Shown here one piece after another: positions 34,856-51,206 of a DNA stretch of 64,000 nt. Source of the stretch: a bacterium (GTDB lineage: Bacteria; RBG-13-61-14; DATKZS01); contig CAXXFL010000001.1 in NCBI GenBank assembly GCA_963674965.2, positions 736,001 through 800,000 of the forward strand, in the 5' to 3' direction. The notes beneath the pieces are model-generated. The model saw only the letters and a list, made by a program, of their open reading frames with translations, made no database searches and had not been told where the DNA came from. Every line of letters begins with the position of its first letter. The first letter of the stretch is position 1. A program made the translations under genes and the position numbers.

Positions 34856-34879
34856 TTTTTCCTCCCCATAACGAGCCGC

Positions 34880-35632: not shown

Positions 35633-35841
35633 GTCATTGCCTCCTTTTTTCGTCCAAAACCAGTCGGCCATGATTTTAATTCGATTTTATTGCAAGATAA
35701 ATCCTTTATAATTCATCTAATTAAAATATAATATGAATACATATCACAACAATAAGGTCATATGCAAAAAAGGGAGACGACGCCAACGCGCTAACAAATA
35801 TTACAAGGACAATCCCGTCGCCTTATATAAGACGCCGTCCG

Positions 35842-36675
35842 CTAATAGAATTTTTCCCTGGCCGTAACGTCTCCCAGCCATCTTTCGAAAAAGATATTGT
35901 AGAAAACTTGGGACATGAGGTTTCCGAGCCGGATATCCGCGGCCAGGGCCTTTTGGGGACATCCGTTGAAGCAGTGATAACAGCGAAGGCACGTCTCGCC
36001 GAAGGAAGGGAGCGGATTAAGGGTAATGGCCCCGGCCGGGCAGGCGGCCTCGCACCATCCGCAGGAGTTGCATTTTTCCGGGTCGGGGACCGGAGGCGGA
36101 AGCAGGGCCCGAAGTTGTTCGTCCGTGTTGAGGATGGCCACCAGGTCGTAAAAACCCCGGCCCGGCTCGAGCGCGTCCACGCGGCTGGAAGGGACCGGGC
36201 CCGGCAGCCCCTTTTCGATAAGCGCCTTGGCCTCGGCGCCGAAGGCCCTGGCCAGGGCCAGGTCATCCTTATCGGGCCGGCCGGGGAAGCGGCCGTTGAT
36301 GGCGGGGAAGGGATGGAAGCACTCGCCCCGAATCAATATCCCTCCCCTGGCGCGGCCGCCTTTTTTTTGGAGGGCGTCGGTCATTTCGTAAAGGACCCGG
36401 CCCGGTCCTCCTCCGCTGGTGGCGAAGACGAGGACCTCGCGTCCGGCCAGGTCCGGAAGAGCCCGGATGAAGTCGAGGACCGGCTGAGGGGCCCGGCTCG
36501 AGAAACATGGCGAGCCCACGGCCACAAGGTTCGAATCCCAAACGCTCCGGGTCTTGGCCTTTTTCAGTGAAAGCAGTTGGATGGACGCTCCGGCCGACTC
36601 GAGGCCCTCGGCCAAGGCCCGTCCCACCTTCCTGGTGTTTCCGGTCTGGGAGAAATAGACCACCGAGGCTTTCAT
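35842..36675 (-). CDS. EFR1-type flavodoxin/ferredoxin fusion
   Basis: YFSQTGNT plus two CxxCxxCxxxCP motifs. Confidence 0.88.
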   Translation of the reverse strand: MKASVVYFSQTGNTRKVGRALAEGLESAGASIQLLSLKKAKTRSVWDSNLVAVGSPCFSSRAPQPVLDFIRALPDLAGREVLVFATSGGGPGRVLYEMTDALQKKGGRARGGILIRGECFHPFPAINGRFPGRPDKDDLALARAFGAEAKALIEKGLPGPVPSSRVDALEPGRGFYDLVAILNTDEQLRALLPPPVPDPEKCNSCGWCEAACPAGAITLNPLPSFGETCLRCYHCFNGCPQKALAADIRLGNLMSQVFYNIFFERWLGDVTAREKFY

Positions 36676-36681
36676 GACCGC

Positions 36682-37464
36682 TCAGCCCGCCTTGGGTGTC
36701 TCTTTGGTTTTATACAGGGAATCGAGGACGTTGCGGATGTACTGCTCGTCGGTGAGGCCGAAGGTCGCCTCCTCGGGGAACTCGGCTACGGAGCGGAAGT
36801 AATCGGCCAGTTCCTTGTTCAACTCGACTCGACGCTCATCCTCGAGCTGGTCCCGCCTGAGGATGACCCGGGTGGCGAGGGCGGCCTCCTCGGCGCTCAC
36901 CCGCTGGCGGAGCCGGGCCTCGAGGTGAGGATAGTCTCGAAAGGAATTGTATTTGCCCGCGGTCACGTCGGCCAGGACGTGGTCGAAAGTGGGACGGCTT
37001 CTTATAACCGCGGTATTGGCGGCGTAATCGCCCAGCCGCTGTGATTTCCGGCTGAAAAAACAGGCCAGCCCCCCGAGAAGATAGAAAGCCGGCAGGGCGT
37101 CCACGAAGCGAAGCAGGTTGCGGATGACTATCTGTGAGAACTTGAGCCTCAGTCCTCCCTCGTCCACCACCCTGAGTTTAAAGACCCTCTTGCCGATGGT
37201 CTGGCCTCGCCAGTGCCACTCGAGGGCCATGCCGTATCCGATGGAAACGACGAAGTACATGACGATCATGGCGGCCGACATCAGGTCCGGGCTGATAATG
37301 CCCAGAAAACCGATGAGCACGTTGGCCAGGGTGGTCAGCGCGCCGATCACGAGAAGATCGATGAAGAAGGCGAAGAACCTGGTCACGGGCCCGGCCAGGG
37401 GGAGGGTAAAGGACACGCCCTCCGGCGTCCTTATCACGAGCGCGTTGGTCCTTGCCTCGCTCAT
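36682..37464 (-). CDS. RDD family protein
   Basis: TPEGV, RFFAFFID, GQTIGKR, QRLGDYAANT. Confidence 0.9.
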   Translation of the reverse strand: MSEARTNALVIRTPEGVSFTLPLAGPVTRFFAFFIDLLVIGALTTLANVLIGFLGIISPDLMSAAMIVMYFVVSIGYGMALEWHWRGQTIGKRVFKLRVVDEGGLRLKFSQIVIRNLLRFVDALPAFYLLGGLACFFSRKSQRLGDYAANTAVIRSRPTFDHVLADVTAGKYNSFRDYPHLEARLRQRVSAEEAALATRVILRRDQLEDERRVELNKELADYFRSVAEFPEEATFGLTDEQYIRNVLDSLYKTKETPKAG

Positions 37465-38486
37465 GACCTTGTTTTCTCCTCGGCCAGGGATTCCCCCTTA
37501 CCCCGGCCGGTAAAGCCAAGGTAGAGGAAAAGCATGAAAAGCTCGCATAGCCCGAAGAATATCTTGACCGAGTAAGGCAGGACGGGCTCGTGGTACTGGC
37601 TGAAGAAGGCCTCGACGAACCCCGCCCATACAAGCAGGATCGCCACGCCGGCGATGAGCGTAACCAGGTCGGGACCGATCTGGCGCAGTCTCGTCTTCAC
37701 GCTTTCCGAGGCGCCCCATCCGATCAGGGCCCTGGCCAGCACCAGTCCCGCCTGTCCCGCTATCAGAATGCAGGGTATCTCGACCGACCCGTGAGGCAAT
37801 AGCCAGCCGGCCAGGAACTTGCCCTCCCCGGCGAGAACGTAATCCAGGCCGACCACCCCCAGGATAACTCCGTTGTGAAAAAGCAGCAGGATGGTCCCGA
37901 TCCCGTAGGTCATGCCCAGGGCCAGGGCCATAATGGAAACCCTGGTGTTGTTGGTCCACAAGGAAGCGGAGAAACCTCCCATGTGCCCGGCGAGCCGTTC
38001 GCCGCCCTCCTTCTCCTCGTGCTTGACCCGCTCGGACGGGTCGCCGTGGAGGTGGGGAAAAGGCGCGAGTATCGTGCTCTTTACGCCCGGCTCGATATAG
38101 AGTACGAATGCCCCGAAGGATGAGCCCGCCAAAGTGACGGCCAGGGACAGGGCGAAGGCCCAGGCGTGCCGCCTGAAGGTTTGGGGAAAGGTCCTGGTTA
38201 TCCAGACGAGGGGGGCCAGGCGGGTCCTTTTATCGCGGCTCTCGTGTATCTCCGCGTAGGCCCGGGCCACCAGGGACTCGAGGTCACGTCTTACCCGGGG
38301 CTCAGCCGGAAAGGACGACAATTTGGCCAGGTCGGCCTGGGCCCTCTGATAAAGGTAATGGAACCGCTTGGCGGACCTCAGGTCCAGGACCCTCTCGACC
38401 TCCTGTTCCATGTTGGAGATCATGGCCTCGAGCTCGTTCCAATAAGGGCGCTCGGCCGCCAGAAATCTTTGCAGGTCCATTATCAA
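37461..38486 (-). CDS. Stage II sporulation protein M-like (DUF95) membrane protein
   Basis: LYQRAQADL, NNTRVS, NGVILG, PHGSVEI, AGFVEAF. TTG start at 38486 overlaps the DUF58 stop; ATG 38480 is an alternative. Confidence 0.88.
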   Translation of the reverse strand: MIMDLQRFLAAERPYWNELEAMISNMEQEVERVLDLRSAKRFHYLYQRAQADLAKLSSFPAEPRVRRDLESLVARAYAEIHESRDKRTRLAPLVWITRTFPQTFRRHAWAFALSLAVTLAGSSFGAFVLYIEPGVKSTILAPFPHLHGDPSERVKHEEKEGGERLAGHMGGFSASLWTNNTRVSIMALALGMTYGIGTILLLFHNGVILGVVGLDYVLAGEGKFLAGWLLPHGSVEIPCILIAGQAGLVLARALIGWGASESVKTRLRQIGPDLVTLIAGVAILLVWAGFVEAFFSQYHEPVLPYSVKIFFGLCELFMLFLYLGFTGRGKGESLAEEKTRS

Positions 38487-39826
38487 AGGAGTTGCCTCCT
38501 CTTTACTCCGATGTATTGCGATACCAGCTCGGGGCAAAGGCCCTCGTTGGCGATCATGCTCATGGGAGCTCCCCTCCGGTTGAGGGCGCCTTCCAGTTCC
38601 TTGAGCCTCTGCCAGACCAGGTGGCCGCCGAGTTTCTCGTAAACGCCGTCAATATTGGCCACGTCGGGCGAGCTGAAAAGCGGCGCCACGCCGGGGGCCG
38701 TGAGCATGTTGACAAGGACCAGGTGGCTTCCGCTGAGCACGGGAAGCTTGTCCACGAAGTTTTCCGCCAGCACCGGGTCGTCGAGGTTGGTAAGAAAAAT
38801 AAGCAGCGCCCTCCTTCTCATCCTCGTCTTGATAAAGGAGAAGACCTCGCCGAAATCCGGGTTGACCGGGTCGGGCTCGAGGGCGTACAGGGCGTCGCGA
38901 ACCGCTCCGTAGTGGGCCTTGCCGTTCCTGGCCCTGACGAACCGGTTGACCTTGTCCGAGAAGGCGACCACGCCGAAGAGGTCTCCTTGCTTCTCCGCCA
39001 CCAGGCCCAGCACCATGGCCGCCGTGATGAAGCGCTCGAGCTGGGTGGTCTCGCCGCTCCCGTTGCCGACGGACTCGACCGTCCTGGCGCTGAGGCGGGA
39101 CGAGTCGATGACCACGTAAATCTCCTGGGTGCGCTCGATCTGGAAGACCTTGGTCACGGGAAAGCCGCGCTTGGCCGTGGCCTTCCAGTGGACGTCCTCA
39201 TATCCGTCGCCGGGAACGTATTCCCGCAGCTTCTCGAACTCCCTTCCCTTCCCGACCTGGCGCTGGGCGTGGACGCCGAACATGCCGCGGTTGAGGAAAA
39301 GGGCCGCCAGGTTCTTTTGCTCGTGAAGAGTGTTCGGATAGGCTCGGACCTCGCCCCGCGCGGCCGAGGTCTTTCGCGTGGACCACAGTCCCAGGGCCGA
39401 GGCCGTCTCGAGGTAGACGTTCTCGAGATGGAATACGCCTCTCCTCAAAGGGGTGACGGGTATCTGGATACGGGAGAGGGCGGCCCCCTCCGGCAGGACC
39501 ACGTCCAATTCCCGGCCGTTCATTGCCAGGTCGCGGGGAGGAAGAAGGCCCAGCCTTATATTGATGGACTTTTGCTTTTCGTTTTTGATCTCCAGCTCGA
39601 GCGGGCCTTCCCGGTCCTTGGTCAGACGCGTTACCGGGGGAAAGGAAGCCTCGACCCCATCCAGTCGCCCGAGGGAGAAGGCCGCGTCCGCCGCGGCTAT
39701 GGCGGCCAGGGCCGCGCAGGCCAGGGCAACCACGCCGATCATGCCCGGCTCGATGGCGTAACCGACGGCGAGCGCCAGTCCGAGAAAGGCGGTCCAGAAA
39801 ACAAGCCTGTCGCGTGGGACGATCAT
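38483..39826 (-). CDS. DUF58 domain protein (vWA-like)
   Basis: EFEKLREYVPGD..VHWKATAKR, VIDSSR. Confidence 0.92.
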   Translation of the reverse strand: MIVPRDRLVFWTAFLGLALAVGYAIEPGMIGVVALACAALAAIAAADAAFSLGRLDGVEASFPPVTRLTKDREGPLELEIKNEKQKSINIRLGLLPPRDLAMNGRELDVVLPEGAALSRIQIPVTPLRRGVFHLENVYLETASALGLWSTRKTSAARGEVRAYPNTLHEQKNLAALFLNRGMFGVHAQRQVGKGREFEKLREYVPGDGYEDVHWKATAKRGFPVTKVFQIERTQEIYVVIDSSRLSARTVESVGNGSGETTQLERFITAAMVLGLVAEKQGDLFGVVAFSDKVNRFVRARNGKAHYGAVRDALYALEPDPVNPDFGEVFSFIKTRMRRRALLIFLTNLDDPVLAENFVDKLPVLSGSHLVLVNMLTAPGVAPLFSSPDVANIDGVYEKLGGHLVWQRLKELEGALNRRGAPMSMIANEGLCPELVSQYIGVKRRQLL

Positions 39827-40800
39827 CTCGGGACGGCCACCTCCTGGAGCACGCGATTGACTACCTCGGGAACCGTCAGGCCCTCGATCTCGTACTCGGG
39901 ACGGAGTATAAGACGATGCTCGAGCACGGGCAGGGCCATGCTCTTAACGTCGTCGGGAGAGACAAAGTCTCGTCCCTCCAGCGCCGCCCGGACCCGGCTG
40001 GACAAAAGAAGCGCCTGGGTGGCGCGGGGACCGGCGCCCACCAGAACGCTTTCGTTCGAGCGCGTCCTTCTTACGATCTCGACCATATAGGCCACCAGTT
40101 CGGCCCTTACCGTGACGAGCTGGAATATCTGACGCAGCTTCCCGAGTTGTTCCGCCGTCATGACGGGGTTGACCTCGCCCCTCTCGAGGATGGCCTCGGG
40201 AGAGTTCTGACCCAGCATGCGCTCGGCAAGCCCTATCTCCTCTTCCCTGCCGGGAAAGCCCATGCTGATCTTGAGCATGAACCTGTCCTTTTGGGCCTCG
40301 GGAAGAGGATAGGTACCCTCGTACTCGATGGGGTTCTGAGTGGCGAACACGGTGAAATTGGGCGAGAGCTTGTGGGTGGCCACGTCTATGGTCACGGCCC
40401 GCTCCTGCATGGCCTGCAAGAGGGCGGACTGGGTCTTGGCCGGGGCTCGGTTGATCTCGTCGGCCAACAGGAACGTGGTGAAGACGGGTCCCTTTACCAG
40501 GGTGAACTCGTTCATCTTCATGTTGAAGACGTTGGTCCCCGTGATGTCGGCCGGCATGAGGTCGGGAGTGAACTGGATGCGGGCGAAATCTACCCCCAGC
40601 ACTTTGGCCAGGGTCCTGACCAGGAGGGTCTTGGCCACGCCGGGCACTCCCTCGATAAGAGCGTGCTGGTTGGTGAATATGGCGATAAGGGCCTTGTCCG
40701 TCGCGTCGGTCTGGCCGATTATCACCTTGCCTATCTCCTGGCGGGCCTTTTGCAGGGCGTTCTTGAGATAGTCGAGATACTCCTGGTTCCTGTTGGACAT
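39823..40800 (-). CDS. moxR: MoxR family AAA+ ATPase
   Basis: EGVPGVAKT, RIQFTPDLMPADITG, ADEINR, ATQNPIEYEGTYPLPEAQKDRF. Confidence 0.95.
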   Translation of the reverse strand: MSNRNQEYLDYLKNALQKARQEIGKVIIGQTDATDKALIAIFTNQHALIEGVPGVAKTLLVRTLAKVLGVDFARIQFTPDLMPADITGTNVFNMKMNEFTLVKGPVFTTFLLADEINRAPAKTQSALLQAMQERAVTIDVATHKLSPNFTVFATQNPIEYEGTYPLPEAQKDRFMLKISMGFPGREEEIGLAERMLGQNSPEAILERGEVNPVMTAEQLGKLRQIFQLVTVRAELVAYMVEIVRRTRSNESVLVGAGPRATQALLLSSRVRAALEGRDFVSPDDVKSMALPVLEHRLILRPEYEIEGLTVPEVVNRVLQEVAVPR

Positions 40801-40801
40801 G

Positions 40802-42160
40802 CTATTTCCTTTCAGCCACAATCCGGCATATTCTCACGTAGGCCCGGGCGAGATTCCCGTCGCCCAGGGGCCTGTTCCTCTCCTCGGCCACCACTTGCTC
40901 GACGGCGCGGGTCTTCCTGACCGTCCGCTCGTTGGGCCTGCCCAGCGACCGTTTCCACTCGTCCAGGCAGACCGTAAGGAGAGTGGACGCGGGCACGCTT
41001 CTTTTAAGAAGGTTGACCAGTCCGGCGGTCGCGTCCTTTCCCGTCTCGACGTTTTCCTCGGCCGGGTCCCGCTTGGGAGTGAGGCTCGAGGCGTTCTTCC
41101 ATATATACAGGACCGCCGCGATTATTAGGGCGATAAGGAGGGCGTGTATCCTGTACTTTCTCATCAGGGTCATGGTTCCCTCCTTGCGCGCTATCCCGAA
41201 ATGGAACTCGTCGAATATGACGTCGCTGGAGGGGCCGACCATCCAGGCCAGAAGATGGGGACGTCTTTCCGTCCTCATGGCCTCGTTGCTGATGAAGTAT
41301 GAATCCGAGGAAAGGACTATCGTGCCTTGGCCGAAATCTCTCTCCATTATCACCGGGTCGCCTTCCCGCTCGTACAGGACGCGCCAGGCGGGGGCCGGGT
41401 CCCCAAAGTAAAGAGCGGAGTGCCAGGAAAGCTTCGGCGGCAGCCAGTCCTTGTCGAGGTCGCTTAAGAGGGCCTTGCCCTCCCCGAAGGACTCGGTCGT
41501 GTCTCCGGACAGGGGCTTGTATTGAAAGGAGAAGCCCCACCTGTCATCCACCGAGACCAAATTGGGCGTAAACGGAAATAACTCGGCGCCGTCCTCCCCT
41601 TCGTCGTCTTCGCTTTTTTCTTCCCGGGCTTCTTGATTTTCCTTTTTGGGAGGCGGTTTGGAGGCTTCTTCTTTTCCCTCCTTCTCTTCCTCCTCCTTGA
41701 TCGGCTCGTCCGGCTCGTCCTGGCTTTTCTTGGATTCCTCGGCCAGCTCGTCGATCTTTTTCTTGAAGTCCTCGTTAACGTTTTCCAGGCAGCACGGTCC
41801 GGACCCCACCGGGAAGAAGGCTATCACCAGCCGGCCGCCCTCCGCCACGAAGGCCTCGAGTCGCTCGATCACGTCCTCCGGGTCCCGGCTTAAATTGGCT
41901 CCCGTGAAAATCAGCGTCCTTCCGTTGCCGCTTTCCAGCTCGGTAAAGGGCCGTATATTTCGTCTCGTCGATACTCCTTGCAGGTCGTCGAGAGACTCGT
42001 AAAGGGCGCGCGCTCCAAGGGGATCGCTTCGATATGAGGAGTAAGGCGGGTAGACGTCGCCGGTCTCGAAGGACAGGTCGAAGAGGGCCACTATCCCGCC
42101 GGCGAAGGCCACAAGGATGACGCCGAGCATCAGCGCGATATATTTATTGTCTCGCGCCAT
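40802..42160 (-). CDS. DUF4350 domain membrane-anchored protein
   Basis: N-terminal TM, SSYRSDPLGARALY, GQGTIVL, ISNEAM, FDEFH, C-terminal TM; position in the MoxR cluster. Confidence 0.8.
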   Translation of the reverse strand: MARDNKYIALMLGVILVAFAGGIVALFDLSFETGDVYPPYSSYRSDPLGARALYESLDDLQGVSTRRNIRPFTELESGNGRTLIFTGANLSRDPEDVIERLEAFVAEGGRLVIAFFPVGSGPCCLENVNEDFKKKIDELAEESKKSQDEPDEPIKEEEEKEGKEEASKPPPKKENQEAREEKSEDDEGEDGAELFPFTPNLVSVDDRWGFSFQYKPLSGDTTESFGEGKALLSDLDKDWLPPKLSWHSALYFGDPAPAWRVLYEREGDPVIMERDFGQGTIVLSSDSYFISNEAMRTERRPHLLAWMVGPSSDVIFDEFHFGIARKEGTMTLMRKYRIHALLIALIIAAVLYIWKNASSLTPKRDPAEENVETGKDATAGLVNLLKRSVPASTLLTVCLDEWKRSLGRPNERTVRKTRAVEQVVAEERNRPLGDGNLARAYVRICRIVAERK

Positions 42161-43988
42161 TGATCCTGAGCCTTTGCCGCCTGGCCAATATTTCGTCCAC
42201 CGCGGCGCGGTCCGCCGGGTGGGTCCCGTACCATACCGACTCGAAAACCCTGGCCGACTCGGAAAAGGTCTCTAGAAGCTCGGGGGCCTCGTGGGACCGC
42301 CTGGCCAGCTCGAGCATGTAGTCGCGGTTGGATTTGAACTTGGCGATGAATACAAGACCGTCCCTGGACAACTGGGCCAGGGTCGCCAAAAAGACGGCCC
42401 GGAGGGCCAGCCGGAACTCCGCTTTTTCCATGAGCTCCCTGGCCAGGGCTATCCACTCGTCCTCGGGCAGGTCGGCGGCCGTGGTTCGCTCGTCCTCCAG
42501 GTCGGGGGGCGCCGCCATGGCCTCGGCCTCGATTTGATGCGTCTCTCCCTCCCCGCGCTTTTGCCAAAGCCGGAGGAGAAAAATAGCCGCCACGCAAAGA
42601 ACGACGGCCACGAGTACGTAGAAAAGCACCTGAATAAAGCCGCTGAAATCCGGCATGGAGAAAGAGCCGTCATGATTGAGCGGGACTTGTCGCTGGGGGA
42701 ACAGGTCCCGGAACCAATCTCGGATATCCTTCAGCCATTCCCCCGCGGTCTTGCCCCATTTCTTGATCGTTTCCGACAGGCCCCGTAAAAAGGAACTTAT
42801 GATGCCTTCCCGTTCCTCGGGCGCGATACGGGGCATGCGCCATTTGTATCTTCTTTCCTCAAGCTCGGACGCGATGGCCCGGTCCAGTTCCTCGGCCCTC
42901 GAGCCGGCCGCGACTTTTTCTCCCGGCTGGTCATTGTCTTGCGCCAGGGAAAGGGAGGGAGAAAAAAGAGTTGAAGCGGTTAGGGCGAACAAGACCGCGG
43001 CCAGGGTGGCCCGGGTCCTCTTGTGGGACAGGCGCTTAATCTCGATCTTCAGGTCCTCCCCCGTTTTAAGGGAGCTTCCATAAAAGCACCTCAGCACGTA
43101 TGCGGCCTTGATGAAGGGGTCCATGCAAAGATAGGTGACGCCGCAGGTGACCGCGTAAAAGGAAGCGTTATACAAGGCCCCGGGGTTCTCGTGGTAGGGA
43201 GTGCTCACGCCCAGGAGCATGTGGAGAAGAGTCGGCATGATGGATATGGCGACCCCCACGTTGACGGCGACCAGTATTCCAAAGGGGCTTAGTAGAACGA
43301 ACATCACGCCGAAAATAAAGCTGAACAGGCCGATGAAAACGTCGGCCCAGTCCGGCGAGGCGGCGGCCGTCGAGGGAATGAGAACAAGGAATACTCCCGC
43401 CGCCGCGACCACTAATATCGGGCTCAGCACCCAGATGATCACGGCGTTTTGCCGCTTCCACAAGGAAGCCTGATACAGGGCGCGGCCGACCAGGTCGCGG
43501 ATCGTCCCCTTTTCTCCGTCGTCCATTACCGTGAAGTTCTGAAAAAAGGCGTAGGCGCCGGGAAAGAATATGACGAAGGGAAGCGTGATGGTCATGGCGA
43601 ACAGGCCGATGGGCTGGATGGCCGCCTGCCTCGCGGCCAGGCGCATGAACCTTATCAGGCTGGGCCTGGGAGGCTCGTCTCCCAGCAACTGCCTTCTTAG
43701 GTCTCCCGCGTAAATCGACTGCCACGTCTTCATCCAGGGGAACAGGATGGCCAGGGCAATGGCGGCCCGGGGCAGCGTAATATGGGCGTCGGCGCTTTTG
43801 CCCATGTCGGCCCAGAAAAATAATAGCGCCAGCACGAAGGGAGCCGAGCCTATGAAATAGGCCAGCAGCGCCCGGGGCGGAGAAAGACGGACGAGATGGA
43901 AGGCCTCCTCGATAATGTCGAAGGGCGGCATGCCGTCGAAAAATTTCTTCCTCGGCCTCAGCATTATTCCATGAATCCCTTTTTCCAT
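42144..43988 (-). CDS. Multi-pass membrane protein with C-terminal DUF4129 domain
   Basis: Many TMs; C-terminal ALRAVF...KSNRDY...FESVWYG. Start uncertain (43988 or 43964). Confidence 0.8.
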   Translation of the reverse strand: MEKGIHGIMLRPRKKFFDGMPPFDIIEEAFHLVRLSPPRALLAYFIGSAPFVLALLFFWADMGKSADAHITLPRAAIALAILFPWMKTWQSIYAGDLRRQLLGDEPPRPSLIRFMRLAARQAAIQPIGLFAMTITLPFVIFFPGAYAFFQNFTVMDDGEKGTIRDLVGRALYQASLWKRQNAVIIWVLSPILVVAAAGVFLVLIPSTAAASPDWADVFIGLFSFIFGVMFVLLSPFGILVAVNVGVAISIMPTLLHMLLGVSTPYHENPGALYNASFYAVTCGVTYLCMDPFIKAAYVLRCFYGSSLKTGEDLKIEIKRLSHKRTRATLAAVLFALTASTLFSPSLSLAQDNDQPGEKVAAGSRAEELDRAIASELEERRYKWRMPRIAPEEREGIISSFLRGLSETIKKWGKTAGEWLKDIRDWFRDLFPQRQVPLNHDGSFSMPDFSGFIQVLFYVLVAVVLCVAAIFLLRLWQKRGEGETHQIEAEAMAAPPDLEDERTTAADLPEDEWIALARELMEKAEFRLALRAVFLATLAQLSRDGLVFIAKFKSNRDYMLELARRSHEAPELLETFSESARVFESVWYGTHPADRAAVDEILARRQRLRINGARQ

Positions 43989-44287
43989 ACCTGTCCCTCA
44001 TGGAAGGACGAGGGAAGGTTTAAAAGCGACTGGCCAACCAGCAGGAAGAAAAGCCAGGCCAGGATAACGCCAAGGGCCATCTGAAGAGCGGCCGCGGCGA
44101 AGCCAAATCTGGAGAAGCGGCGAGACTTGCCCTCCGCGATCTTGGCCAGGCAGGCGGCGCACACCATGCGGTGCTCGTGCTCGGTCACGCACTCGCGGCA
44201 GAAATAGTTGCCGCACTCGAGGCATTGGGCGGCGGCTTCCCTATCCGCGTGGTTGAAGCACCGCTGGCCGGCAAGGACTCGCTCCAT
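43964..44287 (-). CDS. B-box-type Zn-finger protein with C-terminal TM
   Basis: CFNH...CLEC...FCREC...CAAC followed by a hydrophobic helix. Confidence 0.8.
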   Translation of the reverse strand: MERVLAGQRCFNHADREAAAQCLECGNYFCRECVTEHEHRMVCAACLAKIAEGKSRRFSRFGFAAAALQMALGVILAWLFFLLVGQSLLNLPSSFHEGQVWKKGFME

Positions 44288-45075
44288 TATTCCTCCTCCT
44301 TGCCGGGCGCGGGATTGGACGGACCGGGAACCGCGCCGGTCCCGCCGTCCGTCCGGTAATAGTCGTCAAGCGACGGCCGCGCCGGGGCCCCCGTCTGGGC
44401 CTGGGGCCATCCACCCGGGGGCGGGGCCGCGGTAGTCTGGGGGCCTTGCCACGCCGGTCCTTGCGCCTGGCCCGGGTAAGAGGGCTGAGCCGCCTGGTTA
44501 GTCTGGCGAGGCTGATAGCCGTAAAAGGCGAAAGGCGAGGCCATAACGTCGATCCTGACGTCAGGATACCGGTCCAAAACGTCGCTCGCCAGCCGGCCCT
44601 GCGAGCGCTCGATGAGCGGAACCAGAATGGCCAGGGTCTTCTCGGCCATCCTCACGCGGGAGAGGGAATAGAGCCTCTCGACCTGGACCGCCGTGTGCAC
44701 CCGCGTCACGCAGGTCGGTCCCATGGCCGCGGTTGCAAGGGCCATGATAAGCGGCACAAACGCGATTATGCTGAAGATGGCCCCGGGGACCGCGTTGGTT
44801 TTGATGGCGGCGAAAAAGATCATGGCCAAAAAGGCGAAGAAGGCGGCCGCGACGACAAGCCCGATGATGACGTAAAGGTTGGTCCGTGTCCGGGTCACGG
44901 TAATGGCCTGCACGTCGTTAAAATAAAACCTCTTGCACTCCTCGGTGAACTGGTTCCTTTTGAGGAAAACCAAATGATCGCTAGCCATCCACAGTTCGTA
45001 CCGAGCGGAGTTTATAAGATAGAAAAACTCGCGAGGCTTGCCGGGCAGCTTCTTCAGTTTTATATCCTTGGCCAT
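44287..45075 (-). CDS. Hypothetical 2-TM protein with Pro/Gln-rich C-terminal tail
   Basis: Operonic spacing; PH-like N-terminal segment, two TMs, low-complexity tail. Confidence 0.78.
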   Translation of the reverse strand: MAKDIKLKKLPGKPREFFYLINSARYELWMASDHLVFLKRNQFTEECKRFYFNDVQAITVTRTRTNLYVIIGLVVAAAFFAFLAMIFFAAIKTNAVPGAIFSIIAFVPLIMALATAAMGPTCVTRVHTAVQVERLYSLSRVRMAEKTLAILVPLIERSQGRLASDVLDRYPDVRIDVMASPFAFYGYQPRQTNQAAQPSYPGQAQGPAWQGPQTTAAPPPGGWPQAQTGAPARPSLDDYYRTDGGTGAVPGPSNPAPGKEEE

Positions 45076-45077
45076 GG

Positions 45078-45650
45078 TTAGACCCCAAAAACCCTTATGG
45101 CGTAAACGCCCCAAAGAGCCAGGGTAAGAAGGGCGATGGCCATGGCCGCCACGAACCTTATTTTAGTCCTGCCCACGAAGCTGTCCTGCTTTTTCCAGTA
45201 CCTTATGCAGATATATATTACGACGGGCGCCGTTAAAAAGGATACGATCCAGAAAAACATGGATATCAGAGCAATGAACAGGGCTATCGAGTCGTAATAA
45301 TAGTGCTTGGCGGCGGTTTCCTCGATTTTACCGCTTCCCACTCCGCCGCTCACGCAGGAGGGGCAAAGACGGCGTCCGCTCCAGTCGATGCTGCAAAGGT
45401 CGCAAAGGAACCTGCCGCAACCGTCGCAGGCGACGACCGCCTTTTTATTGGGATGGTAAAAGCAGCCGCTTTCGCCGTCTACCACCACGTCCTGTCCCTT
45501 CTTGCCCACCTCGACCTTGAGGAGGGCGGGAAAGGCGTTGGCCGAGACGGCGGACTTGCAGCGCGGACACTCGCCCGACGGACTCGAGTCGATCAGGGGC
45601 AAAGTCATCCAGGTCGAGCAGTTGCCGCAATGTGAGCCTAAATAATACAA
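45078..45650 (-). CDS. Zn-ribbon plus B-box-type Zn-finger membrane protein
   Basis: CGNC/CPRC, then CFYHP...CDGC...CDLC...CPSC, followed by 2-3 TMs. Confidence 0.8.
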   Translation of the reverse strand: MYYLGSHCGNCSTWMTLPLIDSSPSGECPRCKSAVSANAFPALLKVEVGKKGQDVVVDGESGCFYHPNKKAVVACDGCGRFLCDLCSIDWSGRRLCPSCVSGGVGSGKIEETAAKHYYYDSIALFIALISMFFWIVSFLTAPVVIYICIRYWKKQDSFVGRTKIRFVAAMAIALLTLALWGVYAIRVFGV

Positions 45651-45656
45651 GGTTTC

Positions 45657-46694
45657 TTAATACCTCCTGATCACCCTGGTGTTCACGATGAAGTCGTGCA
45701 GGGTCCTTTTTTGCTCGTCGAACAGGGGAATGAAGTATCCCAGGTAACAAGTCATCATGCTGACGAACTCGGAAAGGGTCCGCAGGAAAGCCTTAAGGTA
45801 GGACAACCGGGACCAGTCCGCGTTCACCGCCACCATGCCAAGGGCCATTTTTCCCGGCGTGGCCGCGTACTTGCCGAGAAACAAGGTGTTGTATACGAGG
45901 GGGGTGGCGATCTGGAAGAAATACATGAAGACCATCATGACGATAAAGGCCGGCTCGGGTTTGTCTCCGCTTCCCACCGTGTCGGACACTCCGACTATGG
46001 CGAACATCATCATCATGATTACGACCTGGAACAAGGCGTAGATCATGTAGATAATAAAGGCGTCGATGATCTTGGCCAGGGCCCTTCTCCAGAACTCGGC
46101 GTAGATGGGGACCGCCTGGAGGGGAACGCCCTCCCGGAGTCTCTGGAAAAAGATGGGCTTACACTCGGCGCAAACGTAGTTGTCCTCGTACCTTATCATT
46201 TCCTCGGGGGCAAAGCCCCGGCCGCAGGAGACGCAGGTCGGAAGGCCCCAATTAGCCTGGGGCGAGGCTTGGCCGTGAGCGAGGGAATCGTAGCGTTGCC
46301 AGTTGGCCATGCCGGGGGTCCAGACGAGGGAGTCGCCGCCCACGCGGCCTGACGCGACCAGACGGCCGATCTCCTTCCTCGAGACGGGACCGTTTCTTTG
46401 CTGGCCCACGGCGTAATACCAGTTTGCCGCCTCGTCCTGTTTTTGCTCCGCCTCGGAAGGCGCGGCCCGGGCCGCTATCGGCCTGGCCGGTTCCGCCGGC
46501 GCCTGTACGGGGGCGGCGGGCGCGGCGGGCGCGGCGGAGGAGGGACCGGCCTCGGACCATTTTTTCCAGCCGGCCATTCCCTTTCGCCATACCAGGGTAT
46601 CGGGAGCGATCACTCCCGTCTCGACCAGGGCGTCGAACTCCAGGTCGTCCACCGGGCCCATCCTCTCGTTATTTTTGGCGTAATACCAGGCCAA
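45657..46694 (-). CDS. GYF_2-GYF_2-Zn ribbon-RDD protein (paralog D)
   Basis: Two WYY..GPV..LVW..GM..W units, CVSC/CAEC, FWRRALAKIID, ATPGKM, LHD...TRV. Confidence 0.88.
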   Translation of the reverse strand: MAWYYAKNNERMGPVDDLEFDALVETGVIAPDTLVWRKGMAGWKKWSEAGPSSAAPAAPAAPVQAPAEPARPIAARAAPSEAEQKQDEAANWYYAVGQQRNGPVSRKEIGRLVASGRVGGDSLVWTPGMANWQRYDSLAHGQASPQANWGLPTCVSCGRGFAPEEMIRYEDNYVCAECKPIFFQRLREGVPLQAVPIYAEFWRRALAKIIDAFIIYMIYALFQVVIMMMMFAIVGVSDTVGSGDKPEPAFIVMMVFMYFFQIATPLVYNTLFLGKYAATPGKMALGMVAVNADWSRLSYLKAFLRTLSEFVSMMTCYLGYFIPLFDEQKRTLHDFIVNTRVIRRY

Positions 46695-46853
46695 TAATAG
46701 GTTTCCTCCTTAGGGCTTTAAAGCCCGCGCTCCAGATTACAAATTATAGCCCATGGATACAAGGCCGTCACCCCCGAGGGGCTGTTTTTATTAACGCCTA
46801 TTGGAGCTTAACCTTTTCCCATGCGCTTTATTTTATCCCGTGCTTATAATCCC

Positions 46854-47594
46854 TCAAGGTTTCCGGATAACCCTTGTATCGAGGATTCTATCGTGCAGGG
46901 CTCTTTTTTCGACGTCGAAAGCGGCCATAAAGTATCCGATCATTAAAGTCATCTGACTTACCAGTTCGCCGAATTGCCTTCCAAAGGCGTCCATATAGTC
47001 TATTCTTCCGCCGCCACGTTTTATTACGATCAGACCAAAGAGCATTTTCCCGGGGGTCGCGGAAAATATGCCCAAAAAGAATGTAGTATAGACAAGACCT
47101 AGCGCGAAATAAGGAATATATAAAAAGGCCATATTTAAACCTAAAAGGACAACTGGTCCAAATCCTGTAAATTTTGGTCTTAAGTAGAAAGTGTAAAAAG
47201 ACAGCAGAACGCTAACAATAACAAGGTCCACAATCTTGGCCGCGCCCCGAATCCAGAACCCGGCATAGGAGAAAAAAACCTTCTCTCTTTGCACGCCCTC
47301 CCTGACGCGCTGGAAAAAGACGTTCTTGCATTCGGCGCAAAGGAAAATCCCCTCGTATCGGACCATCTCCTCGGGATTTGCCAGGCGCCCGCATTCGGCG
47401 CAGGGGACGTTCCCCGCGGCGTCGCGTCCGGTAAGGAAGCCGTATGGTCTCCATTGACTCATGCCCGGCCGCCAGACCATAGTGTCATCGGCTATCCTGC
47501 CTTTTTCCACCAGGGCCATGAACTCCCTCTCCTCAACCGGTCCCATCTTCTTGTGCGCTCTCGCGTAATACCAGGCCACGAAAAAACTCTCCAT
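46854..47594 (-). CDS. GYF_2-Zn ribbon-RDD protein (paralog C)
   Basis: WYY..GPV..MVWRPGMSQW, CAEC/CAEC, AGFWIRGAAKIVD, ATPGKM, ALHD. Confidence 0.88.
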   Translation of the reverse strand: MESFFVAWYYARAHKKMGPVEEREFMALVEKGRIADDTMVWRPGMSQWRPYGFLTGRDAAGNVPCAECGRLANPEEMVRYEGIFLCAECKNVFFQRVREGVQREKVFFSYAGFWIRGAAKIVDLVIVSVLLSFYTFYLRPKFTGFGPVVLLGLNMAFLYIPYFALGLVYTTFFLGIFSATPGKMLFGLIVIKRGGGRIDYMDAFGRQFGELVSQMTLMIGYFMAAFDVEKRALHDRILDTRVIRKP

Positions 47595-47665
47595 TCAGCC
47601 AAGAGGAGGACAATCCCGGATAGGCAAGATTATTGTTTCTCGATATGCCAAGTAATGGCCACTCC

Positions 47666-48439
47666 TTACCTCTTAATGAACACCCTGGTGTCGCAAAGAC
47701 GATCGTGCAGGGTCCTTTTCTCGTCGTCGAAAATAGCGACGGCGTATCCCGCCAGGCCGCTTAATAAACTTAGATTCTCCGTAAGGACCCTGAAAAAAGC
47801 ACGCCCATAGGTAAGCTTTGTGCCGTCGGACCTAAGGACGATGAGGCCCGAAAACATCTTGCCGGGGGTCGCGGAGTATCTGCCCAGGAAAAACGAGGGA
47901 TACATGATATATGCAATGCTTGCCAGCGCGAAAAGACCGTAATAAAAAACACCGTAACCCCAAATGCCGGTTACAATCTGCCTCAGAAAGAAAAAAGGAA
48001 AGAATAGCAATATAAGATCGGCTAATTTCGCTCCGGCCCTGGATGCAAAATCCGCGTAAGGGGATGAATTAACGGAAATGGAAAAAAAGTACTCCCATCC
48101 ACCTACCCCTTCCCTGGCGCGCTGGAAAAAGGCGGGCTTGCATCCGATGCACACGAATATATCCCGATATGCCAGAGTTTCCTCGCGAGGGATGAAGCGC
48201 CCGCACATGGAACAAAAGACTTCATCGGACTCCGGGTTTTGCGCTTTATAGGCCCCGTAAGTTTGCCATCGATTCATTCCCGGGCGCCAGACCACGGCGT
48301 TAGCTTTTATTCTTCCCTCCGCCGCCATGGCCTTGAATTCCTCATCGCTCAGGGGTCCCCATCTTTGACCCTTGTCCATGAGATACCAGCCATCCCCGGA
48401 AGAGGCGTTTTCATCGGTCAGCTTCTCTTGGGACTCCAT
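47666..48439 (-). CDS. GYF_2-Zn ribbon-RDD protein (paralog B)
   Basis: WYL..GPL..VWRPGM, CSMC/CIGC, ASRAGAKLAD, ATPGKM, TLHD. Confidence 0.87.
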   Translation of the reverse strand: MESQEKLTDENASSGDGWYLMDKGQRWGPLSDEEFKAMAAEGRIKANAVVWRPGMNRWQTYGAYKAQNPESDEVFCSMCGRFIPREETLAYRDIFVCIGCKPAFFQRAREGVGGWEYFFSISVNSSPYADFASRAGAKLADLILLFFPFFFLRQIVTGIWGYGVFYYGLFALASIAYIMYPSFFLGRYSATPGKMFSGLIVLRSDGTKLTYGRAFFRVLTENLSLLSGLAGYAVAIFDDEKRTLHDRLCDTRVFIKR

Positions 48440-48453
48440 ATCCAGCTCTTTCC

Positions 48454-49419
48454 CTACTTCTTGTAAAACACCCTGGTGTCGCAAATGTGGTCGTGCAGGG
48501 TCCTTTTTTCGTCGTCGAAGGCGGCGATGATGTATCCGATAAAGCAGGTGATCTGGCTAAGCATTTCGGCGAAATGCCTGCCCAGGGCGCGCCAGTAGGT
48601 GATCCGGATCCCGTCGGGCCGCAGGACTATCAGGCCGCAGGCCATTTTGCCCGGCGTGGCGGCGTATTTGCCCAGGAAGAAGGTGGTGTACGCCGCCGGC
48701 ACGGCAATCTGTAACAGGAAGGAGATCATGAAAAGAAGGATGGGGAAAGGAGCGGGCCCGTTTTCAAGCCCCGAGGAAAAGCTCGTCTGCGCGATTGAAA
48801 AAGGCATCTGTAATAAGAAGTTAACGAAGCCCAGTAGAATATTGTCCAGGAGTTTGGCGGCCACCCTTATCCAGAAGCCGCCATATTTCAGTATTCCCGG
48901 CCGGTCCGCTCCCTCTCGAAGGCGCTGGAAGAAAATGTTCTTGCACTGGGCGCACACGAACTCGCCCTGGTAATTAATCGTCTCGTCGGCGGGAAAGGGA
49001 CATCCGCACTCGGCGCAGAAGACGTCATCTTTCGAGGCCGTTCCCGCCAGTACGCCGTAAGCTTGCCATTGGCTCATGCCCGGGCGCCAGACCAGGTCGC
49101 CGGCCTTGATTTTTCCCGCCGCGACCATGGCCTGAAATTCGCGGTCGCTTACGGGCCCCTTTTTCAGGCCCTGGGACACGTAATACCACTCATCCCGGGC
49201 GGTCGGACCCGCCGGCTCTTCGACCTTGCTTTCGGAAGGGGTCCCCGATGGGGCGGCCTCTTTGGGGGCTTTGACCTCGGAGTACTCCTTCCATCCGTCC
49301 ATGCCCTTGGACCAAACCAGGGTGTCGGGCGCGATGGTCCCCTCGTTGACCAAAAGCTCGAACTCGACTTCGTCAACGGGACCTTGTCTTTTGCCATCCT
49401 TGGCGTAATACCAGTTCAC
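48454..49419 (-). CDS. GYF_2-GYF_2-Zn ribbon-RDD protein (paralog A)
   Basis: Two GYF_2 units, CAEC/CAQC, GFWIRVAAKLLD, ATPGKM, TLHD. Confidence 0.88.
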   Translation of the reverse strand: MNWYYAKDGKRQGPVDEVEFELLVNEGTIAPDTLVWSKGMDGWKEYSEVKAPKEAAPSGTPSESKVEEPAGPTARDEWYYVSQGLKKGPVSDREFQAMVAAGKIKAGDLVWRPGMSQWQAYGVLAGTASKDDVFCAECGCPFPADETINYQGEFVCAQCKNIFFQRLREGADRPGILKYGGFWIRVAAKLLDNILLGFVNFLLQMPFSIAQTSFSSGLENGPAPFPILLFMISFLLQIAVPAAYTTFFLGKYAATPGKMACGLIVLRPDGIRITYWRALGRHFAEMLSQITCFIGYIIAAFDDEKRTLHDHICDTRVFYKK

Positions 49420-49532: not shown

Positions 49533-50204
49533 TTACTGGACCCACTTGTCCGAGTTTTCCTGGACGCAGAAAGCCTTCATCTGGGAGCACGGCTCCCCAT
49601 GAATGTAATCGTACATCGCCTTGACCTGGGGCCGGAGGACCGGGTCGAACAATGGCATGAGCAGGCCGTTATAGTCCATCACCATGATGGCCTCCCCCGC
49701 GGTAAGCCCCTGGTACTTCATCTGGTAATAAGCGGCCGTCCGGCCCGCCCTGTGGCTGCCGGTGGTGCAGCGGAAAAGAAGACCCGCCTGGTCGTTCCTG
49801 GCCCGCTCGATTTGTTGGTCGAAGTACTCGAGGAAGCCGTCGCTCACGGGCTTGTTGTGGTTTTGCTTGACGTTGTAAATGACCTCGATATCCGGGCACA
49901 CTCCCTCTTTCTGATAGGCCAGCTCGTGTTTCTCGGCCGTGCCCGCCATGACAATGACCCTGTCGATCTGGTAGACCGAGCACCACTTGGAAAAGGTCTC
50001 CTTGTCCGGTTCCCCGCTCCGGTAGAGGCGGAAAGCCTGGCCCTCGCCCGGCGGCGGTCCGTCGATCTGGTGAAGGTTGCCCTCGACCTTGGTGTAACCA
50101 GGGCCGTCCAGAAGCTCGGGCCGGGCCGGGGCCTTGGCGGCGCAGGCCGCGCCCACCAGGGCGGCTATGAAAATGGCGCACAAGATTACGCGAATATTTC
50201 TCAT
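49533..50204 (-). CDS. Lipoprotein with tyrosine/dual-specificity phosphatase-like domain
   Basis: Lipobox GAAC; LYRSGEP; CTTGSHR equals the CX5R catalytic loop. Confidence 0.78.
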   Translation of the reverse strand: MRNIRVILCAIFIAALVGAACAAKAPARPELLDGPGYTKVEGNLHQIDGPPPGEGQAFRLYRSGEPDKETFSKWCSVYQIDRVIVMAGTAEKHELAYQKEGVCPDIEVIYNVKQNHNKPVSDGFLEYFDQQIERARNDQAGLLFRCTTGSHRAGRTAAYYQMKYQGLTAGEAIMVMDYNGLLMPLFDPVLRPQVKAMYDYIHGEPCSQMKAFCVQENSDKWVQ

Positions 50205-50303
50205 TTTTATTCCTCCGGGAATGACGGCTATTTATCATCAGCGGCGAACGACTCTGGGAAAGCCGTTCGCCGCATTTTCTCTCCCCTTCGTCGCTTTATC
50301 AGG

Positions 50304-51206
50304 TTACAGCTTTTTGACGGCCTCGGCAAGCTTTTCAGGCAGCTCGCCTTTCCCGCACTTGTGGACCTCGCTGACCGTCTTTTCCGTCACCCCCGAGAGG
50401 GAGTCCACCAGTTGGAGACTGATAGTATAAGAATCGCCTATCCTTCCTATCTGGCCCACCACCGCCTTCTGGGCGCCCACATCGCGGGCGATGGCGGCCG
50501 CCGTAGCGGGATTGGCCATGTCCTCCTTCTTAATCTTCTTTCGCTTTGCCGCCGCCTCGACCTGACCCTGGTCCACCACGATGTAGTTGCCCGTTGCCCC
50601 GAGCTGGCCCCTAATCGTTATACTCAGCACCTGGGCCTCGTCCTCGGGAACGTTTATTGCCGCCAGGTCCATGACCGCCGTCAACGCCGGCGACTTCTTA
50701 TCCGGCGAGTCAACGGAAACCACGCGCACGGTTATATTGAAGTGGCCCAGGTCGTCGAACCGAAGGGAGTCAAGCTCATTGACGTGAAAACCCAGGTTTC
50801 CGCCCTCGATCACCTCGAAGGTCCCGGCCGACCCCACGCAAAAGGGAGAGGCGTCGCCGATCCTTCCCAGGAGCGCCATGTAGTTGCAGTCCCGCACCAT
50901 CTCCTTGAGAGGGTCGCGGCCCTGGCCGTCGGGACCCCTCGAGAGACGCACGCCGGGGTCTACCAGGCCGTCGGCCGTTATGTTGACCAGGTCGCCCTCT
51001 TTGAGGAATATGCCCGAGTTGATCCAGCCCTGAGTCGGATTAAGATACACCTCGGTCGTGGCCGGCTCCTTGCCGCTCTTGGCCATGACCTCGTAGGACA
51101 CGCTGCGTACCCCGCTGGCGCTTTTGGCCTGAACGACGCTCGAGAAAAGCGCCGCCAAGACGAATGACAATATCAGACCCACCAATGCCTTGCCTTTCAT
51201 ACTCAT
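50304..51206 (-). CDS. Secreted protein: LecA/PA-IL-like domain plus CsgG/DUF2380-like C-terminal domain
   Basis: Signal peptide; GWINSGIFLKEGD..ITADG..ALLGRIG..G.LGFHVNE; C-terminal VGAQKAVVGQIGRIGDSYTISLQLVD. Confidence 0.6.
   Translation of the reverse strand: MSMKGKALVGLILSFVLAALFSSVVQAKSASGVRSVSYEVMAKSGKEPATTEVYLNPTQGWINSGIFLKEGDLVNITADGLVDPGVRLSRGPDGQGRDPLKEMVRDCNYMALLGRIGDASPFCVGSAGTFEVIEGGNLGFHVNELDSLRFDDLGHFNITVRVVSVDSPDKKSPALTAVMDLAAINVPEDEAQVLSITIRGQLGATGNYIVVDQGQVEAAAKRKKIKKEDMANPATAAAIARDVGAQKAVVGQIGRIGDSYTISLQLVDSLSGVTEKTVSEVHKCGKGELPEKLAEAVKKL

Follow-up and report, generated by a model that had tools for sequence, protein, structure and literature searches.

Thirteen minus-strand genes of contig CAXXFL010000001.1 as an expanded copy of a ten-gene membrane-protein operon, possibly an envelope-remodelling machine

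What kind of system is encoded where a MoxR-type ATPase gene lies within a long, unbroken row of genes for membrane proteins? The question is raised by positions 36682-49419 of a 64,000-nucleotide (nt) stretch of bacterial DNA (contig CAXXFL010000001.1, positions 736,001 to 800,000; hereafter, the window), where 13 open reading frames (ORFs) lie on the minus strand, head to tail from 49419 down to 36682. Their products are referred to as P1 to P13 in order of transcription, the first four also as gR1 to gR4. An initial annotation of the window had noted the 13 co-directional genes, all of which are indeed present on that strand (Table 1); its domain list was matched by a Pfam search of the 13 proteins, and its counts of five RDD proteins and six Cys-rich, zinc-type proteins were both correct. 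Sequence comparison indicates that the 13 genes are a local, expanded copy of a ten-gene operon conserved across phyla.

This relationship emerged from a neighbourhood survey. A scan with the alignment of P5, taking one genome per species, gave 464 pattern matches, 384 of which encode a relative of P5; the best 80 of the 384 were fetched with 10-kb flanks and, together with the locus G033, make up a survey set of 81 loci, which is not a random sample. ORFs were taken as the longest frames and searched with the 13 window proteins. The hits were colinear on one strand in 81/81 loci, and their order is fixed: a protein with a GYF domain, a zinc ribbon (ZnR) and an RDD domain (GYF-ZnR-RDD), a ZnR/B-box transmembrane (TM) protein (P5), a split PH-like TM protein (P6), a B-box TM protein (P7), and then DUF4129-type, DUF4350, MoxR, DUF58, SpoIIM-like and RDD proteins. 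All ten families were found in 46/81 loci. Wherever at least 1 kb is available upstream of P5, a GYF-RDD gene is present (76/76); a DUF4129-type gene, which links the front of the operon to its core, occurs in 66 of the 68 loci that continue downstream for at least 4 kb beyond P5, and all six core genes in 53 of the 59 loci with at least 9.5 kb after P5. The window contains all ten families in this order and on one strand, the first family four times. Thus, the MoxR core and the GYF-RDD and B-box genes go together, as had been proposed from the window, and the core itself, as also proposed, is a recurrent neighbourhood without an assigned function, seen in a Rhizobium plasmid, in mycobacteria and in the literature (see below). 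The front end, described in the initial annotation as variable, is instead, at this level, a fixed quartet (one GYF-ZnR-RDD protein, P5, P6 and P7) in which variation is confined to how many copies of the first gene there are and to the C-terminal part of P6; another front is seen only in distant core arrays. No description of the ten-gene operon came up in a literature search; it may be among the GYF-protein operons of figure S4 in Attia et al. (2024).

Six of the 59 loci depart from the full core: two end before the last gene, one holds a run of N, in L055 DUF4350 is followed by other genes, and in the last two, Desulfonema magnum and L071, the front quartet is followed by unrelated genes. 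In D. magnum, the only cultured carrier in the survey list, P8 and P9 lie 1.5 Mb from the front quartet, and another 3 Mb separates them from the SpoIIM-like gene; the operon is broken, yet all the homologues searched for (P5, P8, P9 and the SpoIIM-like protein) are kept. This split state is described here for the first time. Carriers in the survey belong to the Verrucomicrobiota, Thermodesulfobacteriota, Acidobacteriota, Nitrospirota, Poribacteria and others. The G033 locus, found via a P6 homologue in a genome outside the window's class, has the same order with a head RDD gene that is devoid of GYF. Nearer to the window, the system was seen in one of the 12 genomes of the same class that were searched; this genome (G003), of the same family, carries P7 to P13 at a contig start, with expectation (E) values down to 5.5e-179. 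In the reverse direction, a strong match to P8 was found in 5/151 sampled Desulfobacterota, all five of which carry P5; P5 lies about 2 kb upstream of P8 on the same contig in four of them, and the two are split in D. magnum.

The flanks of the surveyed loci are housekeeping and syntenic, with an ATPase family of amino-acid ATP-binding cassette (ABC) transporters upstream in 18 loci. A candidate eleventh gene downstream of the last RDD gene, a plus-strand ORF family (42 ORFs in 21 loci), was rejected; it is Arg/Gly-rich, is overlapped in L008 by a minus-strand ORF family of 18 loci, and was treated as an antisense artefact. The operon was also seen on contigs of metagenome-assembled genomes (MAGs) with odd labels, namely Promethearchaeota (L079), Bifidobacteriaceae (L010 and L014) and Gammaproteobacteria/Pseudomonadales (L012 and L021). 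The GYF-RDD gene of L079 is near-identical to one from Thermodesulfobacteriota (end branches 0.008 and 0.018), and these contigs are probably mis-binned rather than the result of gene transfers.

The junctions between the window genes had been said to overlap or to measure a few base pairs; most do overlap or are separated by 2-6 nt, but 71 nt lie between the genes for P2 and P3 and 159 nt between those for P3 and P4. The P6 gene, recorded as encoding a protein with a Pro tail, is present, although its start, judged from homologues, is probably at 45075 and not at 45114. A crude hydropathy scan found clear TM segments in 12 of the 13 products. The exception, P10, has one 19-residue stretch just above the threshold of the scan, which we do not read as a TM helix.

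Table 1. Genes of the array and the adjoining downstream gene (window coordinates; aa, amino acids)
Gene	Position	Strand	Product	Basis
gR1 (P1)	48454-49419	-	321 aa; two GYF_2, four-Cys zinc ribbon, RDD membrane domain	Pfam
gR2 (P2)	47666-48484	-	272 aa; GYF_2, zinc ribbon, RDD	Pfam
gR3 (P3)	46854-47594	-	246 aa; GYF_2, zinc ribbon, RDD	Pfam
gR4 (P4)	45657-46694	-	345 aa; two GYF_2 with Ala/Pro-rich linker, zinc ribbon, RDD	Pfam
P5	45078-45650	-	190 aa; N-terminal zinc ribbon, B-box-like eight-ligand zinc module, two C-terminal TM helices	
P6	44287-45114 (longest ORF, 275 aa; likely start 45075, 262 aa)	-	predicted PH-like domain split by TM hairpin, then disordered Pro-rich tail (~100 aa)	
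P7	43964-44287	-	107 aa; B-box-like zinc finger, one TM helix, short conserved outer motif	
P8	42144-43988	-	614 aa; polytopic helical membrane domain (~residues 20-310), linker, one TM helix, C-terminal DUF4129 helical bundle	
P9	40802-42160	-	452 aa; DUF4350: N-terminal TM, acidic domain predicted extracytoplasmic, second TM, basic cytoplasmic tail	
P10	39823-40821	-	332 aa; MoxR-type AAA+ ATPase (AAA_3 + AAA_lid_2)	
P11	38483-39826	-	447 aa; DUF58 (vWA-like) with N-terminal TM hairpin	
P12	37461-38537	-	358 aa; SpoIIM-like polytopic membrane protein	
P13	36682-37464	-	260 aa; RDD membrane protein, C-terminal soluble region ~120 aa	
flavodoxin/4Fe-4S gene	35842-36675	-	277 aa; starts 6 nt after last RDD gene	

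What sets the window apart from the other loci is the head of the operon. One GYF-RDD copy is found in 75/81 loci, two in 3, and the count is cut by a contig end in a further 3; four copies occur in the window alone. As judged from its sequence, the GYF-ZnR-RDD subunit is duplicated in this genome into four diverged copies, two of which have tandem GYF domains. The Pfam matches are GYF_2 (two stretches, 1.4e-30) and RDD (3.6e-23) for gR1, RDD (3.4e-18) and GYF_2 (2.4e-12) for gR2, and GYF_2 (two stretches, 1.6e-31) and RDD (2.9e-23) for gR4; the linker between the GYF domains of gR4 has 5 Pro per 15 residues. The four Cys residues that follow the GYF domain (C65, C68, C86 and C89 in gR3) are invariant in 47/47 aligned GYF-RDD proteins (alignment A3). 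The copies are 37-50% identical to one another. In a quick tree of the ZnR-RDD part they form one group (Shimodaira-Hasegawa-like approximate likelihood-ratio test 93, not starred) beside a Poribacteria locus, with a long-branch warning; the end branches measure 1.81 for gR2, the fastest-evolving copy, 0.88 for gR3 and 0.83 for gR4. The conservative copy is gR1, with an end branch of 0.12 and 57% identity to the single copy of the Poribacteria locus L005. All six GYF_2 matches of the 6.5 Mb genome fall within gR1-gR4, and none was found in 14 control genomes. The four-fold amplification and the confinement of the genome's GYF domains to one array are both new here, and with every GYF domain of the genome in this array the window is a useful natural variant. 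Two surveyed loci (L042:2454-3263 and L048:6272-7498) have an extra upstream GYF gene of another kind, in which the GYF domain and zinc ribbon are joined not to RDD but to a C-terminal part with a second Cys pair and TM helices.

The two small zinc proteins of the quartet had been called B-box proteins. At the level of the window proteins the matches are sub-threshold (zf-B_box, 21.1 bits for P5 and 17.4 bits for P7, against a Pfam cut-off of 24.1), but the family supports the call: 34 of 40 P7 homologues match both ANCHR-like_BBOX and zf-B_box (E ≤ 0.01), and the G033 homologue reaches 28.4 bits with ANCHR-like_BBOX, above its cut-off of 27. The eight-ligand Cys/His pattern is kept at the family level in both P5 and P7; it is invariant in the alignment of P5 (A1), and in that of P7 (A4), where mean column identity is 58%, the Cys/His ligands are invariant as well. 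A profile of P5 compared with solved structures gave weak rows only (zinc ribbons of LysW and Rpo12, and the B-box of Midline-2 with E 0.4).

For P6 no match was found in Pfam, including its bPH model, or in NCBIfam, and the family is a large one: its profile finds 2,882 representative clusters (50% identity) at E ≤ 0.001. An AlphaFold2 model built on a 40-row alignment has a predicted local distance difference test (pLDDT) score above 90 at about residues 25-165, where four strands are followed by a TM hairpin, two or three more strands and a helix; the tail is disordered. The invariant residues of the core in that alignment are D33, H34, R49, D54, G119, T128, V130 and Q159. The top Foldseek rows are PH domains (Sin1, bacterial DUF1696 and a Shewanella PH domain), with E of at least 0.099 and none at or below 0.001, and a VIA structure alignment gives Z scores of 8.3-9.0 to PTB, PH and FERM-F3 domains, a level that the tool calls common. 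With moderate support, then, P6 appears to be a PH-like domain split by a TM hairpin. Look-ups of P6 and of the P8 membrane domain in the ESM Atlas returned unnamed clusters only.

The tail of P6 deserves separate treatment. That of the window protein, about 100 aa, includes a PPPGGW stretch, and P6 proteins of the short type mostly end in a conserved PP-containing motif. In the 68 loci with both the head gene and P6 intact, PP is present in 33 of the 35 short tails of GYF-bearing loci, and the three loci without GYF have a P6 without a PP tail. Both ends of P6 lie beside K/R-rich segments, so that by hydropathy and charge counts the tail should share a side of the membrane with the GYF domains. 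The tail motif and its partial match to the presence of GYF are new here. A complex prediction that paired residues 1-105 of gR3 (GYF-ZnR) with residues 185-262 of P6 (the tail), run without controls, scored 0.00 and speaks neither for nor against binding. Desulfobacterales-type loci encode a long-type P6 (for example L013:10497-11519 and L033:2844-3908), with a C-terminal extension of about 190 aa that holds extra TM helices and is preceded by a recurrent His-rich H-E-x-G-x-x-H motif; this variant does not occur in the window P6.

Of the six core proteins, P10 matches AAA_3 (209.5 bits; cut-off 27) and AAA_lid_2 (74.2 bits; cut-off 22.7), and its P-loop (GVPGVAKT, 58-65) and Walker B motif (FLLADE, 117-122) read as intact. 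The adjoining DUF58 gene overlaps the MoxR stop by 4 nt, and its product, P11, matches DUF58 with 7e-20 (71.6 bits; cut-off 23.4). P12 matches SpoIIM (2.1e-34, 119.3 bits; cut-off 26.9) and is 57% identical to the D. magnum homologue; no SpoIID or SpoIIP partner was found among the 13 genes, the only part of the genome searched for them. DUF4350 in P9 (3.3e-18) and RDD in P13 (1.8e-22) were also found with Pfam; the topology given for P9 comes from crude hydropathy and charge counts, and the soluble region of P13 from hydropathy. P8 has a DUF4129 match close to the cut-off (26.3 against 24.8 bits). Its AlphaFold2 model has a pLDDT of 78.5, and a Foldseek search of solved structures with this model gave nothing at E ≤ 0.001. 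Two weak rows were set aside, one to a HEPN-domain bundle (2hsb) and one to CysZ (3tx3, probability 0.90, E 1.1), the latter far from significant. A tblastn search of plasmids with P8 gave no match. The DUF4129 proteins of about 730 aa in relatives, considered as counterparts of P8, do not match it and are of another kind. The genome has a second DUF4129 protein (G000 contig 4, around 299131-299331, L109; open frame of 745 aa), also without a match to P8, which resembles the ~730-aa DUF4129 proteins found in 12/12 same-class genomes.

What might such a set of proteins do? We suggest that the 13 genes encode one inner-membrane machine whose likeliest role is to remodel or maintain the inner membrane or envelope, with defence or simple transport less likely; the function is inferred, and we hold this view tentatively, its chances falling a little short of even. 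MoxR ATPases act with vWA-type partners in assembling or remodelling other complexes. By analogy with those pairs, a MoxR hexamer, tethered to the membrane by the TM-anchored, vWA-like DUF58 protein, would use ATP to assemble or remodel a platform of DUF4129-type, DUF4350, SpoIIM-like and RDD proteins. Since the DUF58 partner is membrane-anchored and eight further membrane-protein families are encoded in a fixed order, the latter are presumably the machine or its clients. The domain content and predicted topology of the front proteins suggest that their zinc ribbons, B-box-like fingers, PH-like and GYF domains would face the cytoplasm and form a layer for docking and gating. GYF domains are binders of proline-rich peptides; in this layer the Pro-rich C-terminal tail of P6 is the best candidate for a GYF ligand inside the system and the four GYF-ZnR-RDD copies could serve as alternative or mixed adaptor subunits.

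Several published observations are consistent with parts of this scheme. The GYF domain of GltJ binds a proline-rich sequence with micromolar affinity, with the zinc ribbon as a switch, and ZnR-GYF modules often occur N-terminally in membrane proteins, RDD and DUF805 being among the fused, predicted 'multi-TM receptors' (Attia et al., 2024; PMC11135422). In Mycobacterium tuberculosis, a pull-down of the divisome protein Rv0954 recovered both Rv3694c (SpoIIM-like) and Rv3695 (RDD) (PMC8093794), and expression of the mycobacterial core genes changes together, as in co-regulated genes (PMC8191103). A role in secretion or membrane remodelling was predicted for DUF4350/MoxR/vWA sets, and bacterial SpoIIM homologues were noted beside vWA and COG0714 genes (Makarova et al., 2015; PMC5898192). 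A more specific version, in which the front quartet is a portable cytoplasmic input module, would have the GYF domains dock on the PP-bearing P6 tail while the B-box and zinc-ribbon proteins hold the assembly, docking would time the remodelling of the platform by MoxR/DUF58, and the four paralogues would be four input channels into one motor. We consider this version unlikely; if true, it would provide a bacterial counterpart of eukaryotic membrane adaptor-scaffold signalling, built from GYF, B-box, PH-like, vWA and AAA+ parts.

A number of observations weigh against the proposed machine or its details. Loci that come from related genomes are non-independent samples. The 71-nt and 159-nt gaps hold promoter-like consensus matches, those of the 159-nt gap extending to its surroundings, so that the paralogues may have transcripts of their own; a scan for promoters and terminators produced consensus matches only and nothing decisive at the operon ends. 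The canonical metal-ion-dependent adhesion site (MIDAS) motif of vWA domains, DxSxS, was not found in P11, which has DSSRLS at the aligned place; among 58 aligned members of the DUF58 family the commonest variants at this place share a DxSRL core. The PH-like assignment of P6 draws on middling fold scores. Lastly, in 28 of the 65 loci with GYF the P6 protein is long and has additional TM helices, and PP is absent from 18 of those 28; in two other GYF-bearing loci P6 is without any tail, and the GYF-less class consists of three loci, two of them from sister Smithella genomes. The link between GYF and the P6 tail is suggestive only, because the GYF-bearing loci with a long P6 often have no PP.

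Other explanations have to be set against these proposals. One is that two unrelated units, a GYF-RDD/zinc-finger membrane set and the MoxR core, merely lie side by side, as might be thought from D. magnum and L071, where unrelated genes follow the front quartet and the core lies elsewhere, and from core arrays without the quartet on a Rhizobium plasmid. The synteny counts largely refute it: both parts are linked in 66/68 loci, P5 occurs in 5/5 genomes with this type of P8, and split genomes keep the parts that were searched for, leaving the idea of chance adjacency very improbable. An anti-phage or conflict system of the MoxR/vWA type, with the amplified GYF-RDD paralogues as diversified sensors, would fit the lineage-specific, fast-evolving copies and the patchy spread (1/12 same-class genomes, 5/151 Desulfobacterota), both of which resemble defence genes. 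P10 does exceed the cut-off of bpMoxR, the Pfam model of MoxR-vWA-beta-propeller ternary systems (31.9 bits against 27; AAA_3 scores far higher), and has weak matches to PADLOC MoxR models (DolB, 2.5e-05; mad8, 4.3e-04). However, PADLOC has no match for the other 12 of the 13 proteins, Pfam (E ≤ 0.01) finds among the 13 neither a beta-propeller nor an effector-like domain (nuclease, protease or pore former), gene order is fixed across phyla with a single sensor-like gene in 75/81 loci, and the flanks are housekeeping and syntenic; a defence role thus strikes us as quite improbable.

Two further alternatives keep the 13 genes together and assign them another task. Were the complex to move ions or solutes, the pathway would consist of the RDD proteins and the polytopic domain of P8, and the part of MoxR/DUF58 would be confined to its assembly. 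The array encodes five RDD proteins, a family whose Pfam description suggests transport and of which a Halobacillus member is reportedly a cation/proton antiporter, and the CysZ row obtained with the P8 membrane domain points the same way. That row is far from significant, though, no transporter family was found in any of the 13 proteins with Pfam or NCBIfam, and six zinc modules, the GYF domains and the PH-like domain would be left unexplained, which makes transport a doubtful answer. In a signalling system, P7 and P5 would resemble zinc-binding anti-sigma or anchor proteins, binding a cytoplasmic regulator and letting it go, with the four GYF-RDD proteins as receptors. P7 has a suitable build, in that the zinc domain is cytoplasmic, there is a single TM helix, and the short outer motif is strongly conserved; and ZnR-GYF modules work as a switch in GltJ and RDD is placed in 'predicted multi-TM receptors' by Attia and co-authors (PMC11135422). 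Against this, the ten conserved genes encode no sigma factor, kinase, response regulator or DNA-binding protein, and signalling of this kind has no need for a MoxR/DUF58 pair or for four further polytopic proteins; we hold it to be unlikely, too. The transport and signalling proposals each account for a part of the components only. Envelope remodelling or maintenance is the reading of the operon that we prefer.

The genes on either side of the array are unrelated to it. Downstream, on the same strand (33662-36675), three genes encode proteins of 277 aa (flavodoxin plus 4Fe-4S), 263 aa (Flavodoxin_5) and 397 aa (DUF362); these three may be co-transcribed with the operon, and fall outside the conserved set in other loci. 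Upstream (49533-51206, minus strand) are genes for a weakly dual-specificity-phosphatase-like (DSPc) protein (24.9 bits against a cut-off of 33.5) and for a 300-aa protein with LpoB-like and PA-IL-like matches. The 113-nt spacer ahead of gR1 contains a GC-rich inverted repeat.

The operon is widespread, as 384 P5-encoding stretches in a set of one genome per species and 2,882 P6 clusters attest, and its carriers include environmentally important phyla (Verrucomicrobiota, Thermodesulfobacteriota, Acidobacteriota and Nitrospirota). Solving it would assign a function to DUF4129, DUF4350, DUF58 and RDD proteins and to non-sporulation homologues of SpoIIM, would bear on the related mycobacterial Rv3689-Rv3695 cluster, and would provide a second, independent setting for how bacterial GYF and zinc-ribbon modules work. 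It would also reach families that models hardly cover at present, P6 being without a Pfam or NCBIfam model and P5 and P7 having only sub-threshold B-box matches.

How does the operon compare with systems already described? MoxR/vWA pairs are known from RavA-ViaA, CbbQ-CbbO, NorQ-NorD and GvpN. The window resembles them in that the gene for an AAA_3 ATPase with a lid adjoins that for a vWA-like DUF58 protein, and its MoxR protein has weak NCBIfam similarity to GvpN and chelatase ATPases; it differs in that the partner is membrane-anchored and devoid of a canonical MIDAS, and in that the putative clients are eight membrane-protein families of the operon and not a soluble enzyme. In the Bacteroides aerotolerance (Bat) operon, MoxR and DUF58 genes also head a row of membrane-protein genes, the Bat proteins being vWA and TPR membrane proteins; to our knowledge, none of the DUF4129, DUF4350, SpoIIM, RDD, GYF or B-box families is involved. 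As to the MoxR-vWA-beta-propeller ternary system, the propeller partner was not found among the 13 proteins (Pfam, E ≤ 0.01). Like gR1-gR4, the membrane protein GltJ of the gliding machinery of Myxococcus xanthus has a GYF domain and a zinc ribbon in the cytoplasm, at its N-terminal end (Attia et al., 2024; PMC11135422), whereas the window proteins have the reverse order (GYF before ZnR), an RDD membrane part and no gliding-motor context; against the NCBIfam model of GltJ the window GYF regions reach at best 9.5e-16 and 58 bits, far below the cut-off of 450. The archaeal arCOG01314 (DUF4350)/MoxR/vWA sets likewise encode MoxR and vWA proteins along with a DUF4350 protein whose outer domain is large and whose TM segment is C-terminal, but they carry Ig-like, S-layer-type proteins, and the account of these sets lists no RDD, GYF or B-box protein (Makarova et al., 2015; PMC5898192).

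The closest relative of the core is a six-gene cluster, found in the mycobacterial Rv3689-Rv3695 region and on plasmid pRLN2 of Rhizobium leguminosarum (NZ_CP025014.1), with the same six Pfam families, DUF4129, DUF4350, MoxR, DUF58, SpoIIM and RDD. For the mycobacterial cluster the likeness is one of published annotation, as tabulated in PMC8191103. The Rhizobium array (L111; 67211-74571) reads DUF805, DUF805, short DUF4129-like, DUF4350, MoxR, DUF58, SpoIIM and RDD. Thus, where the window has the front quartet with its four families, the plasmid has two DUF805 genes; the DUF4129-like product has 251 aa as compared to the 614 aa of P8, and the SpoIIM-like protein of the window is only 25-30% identical to those of plasmids. 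Small multi-TM modules of the class to which DUF805 belongs are given as fused to GYF by Attia and co-authors (PMC11135422). Since DUF805 genes head the Rhizobium core, the core can evidently take another small multi-TM front, and at this deeper level part of the idea of a variable front end survives.

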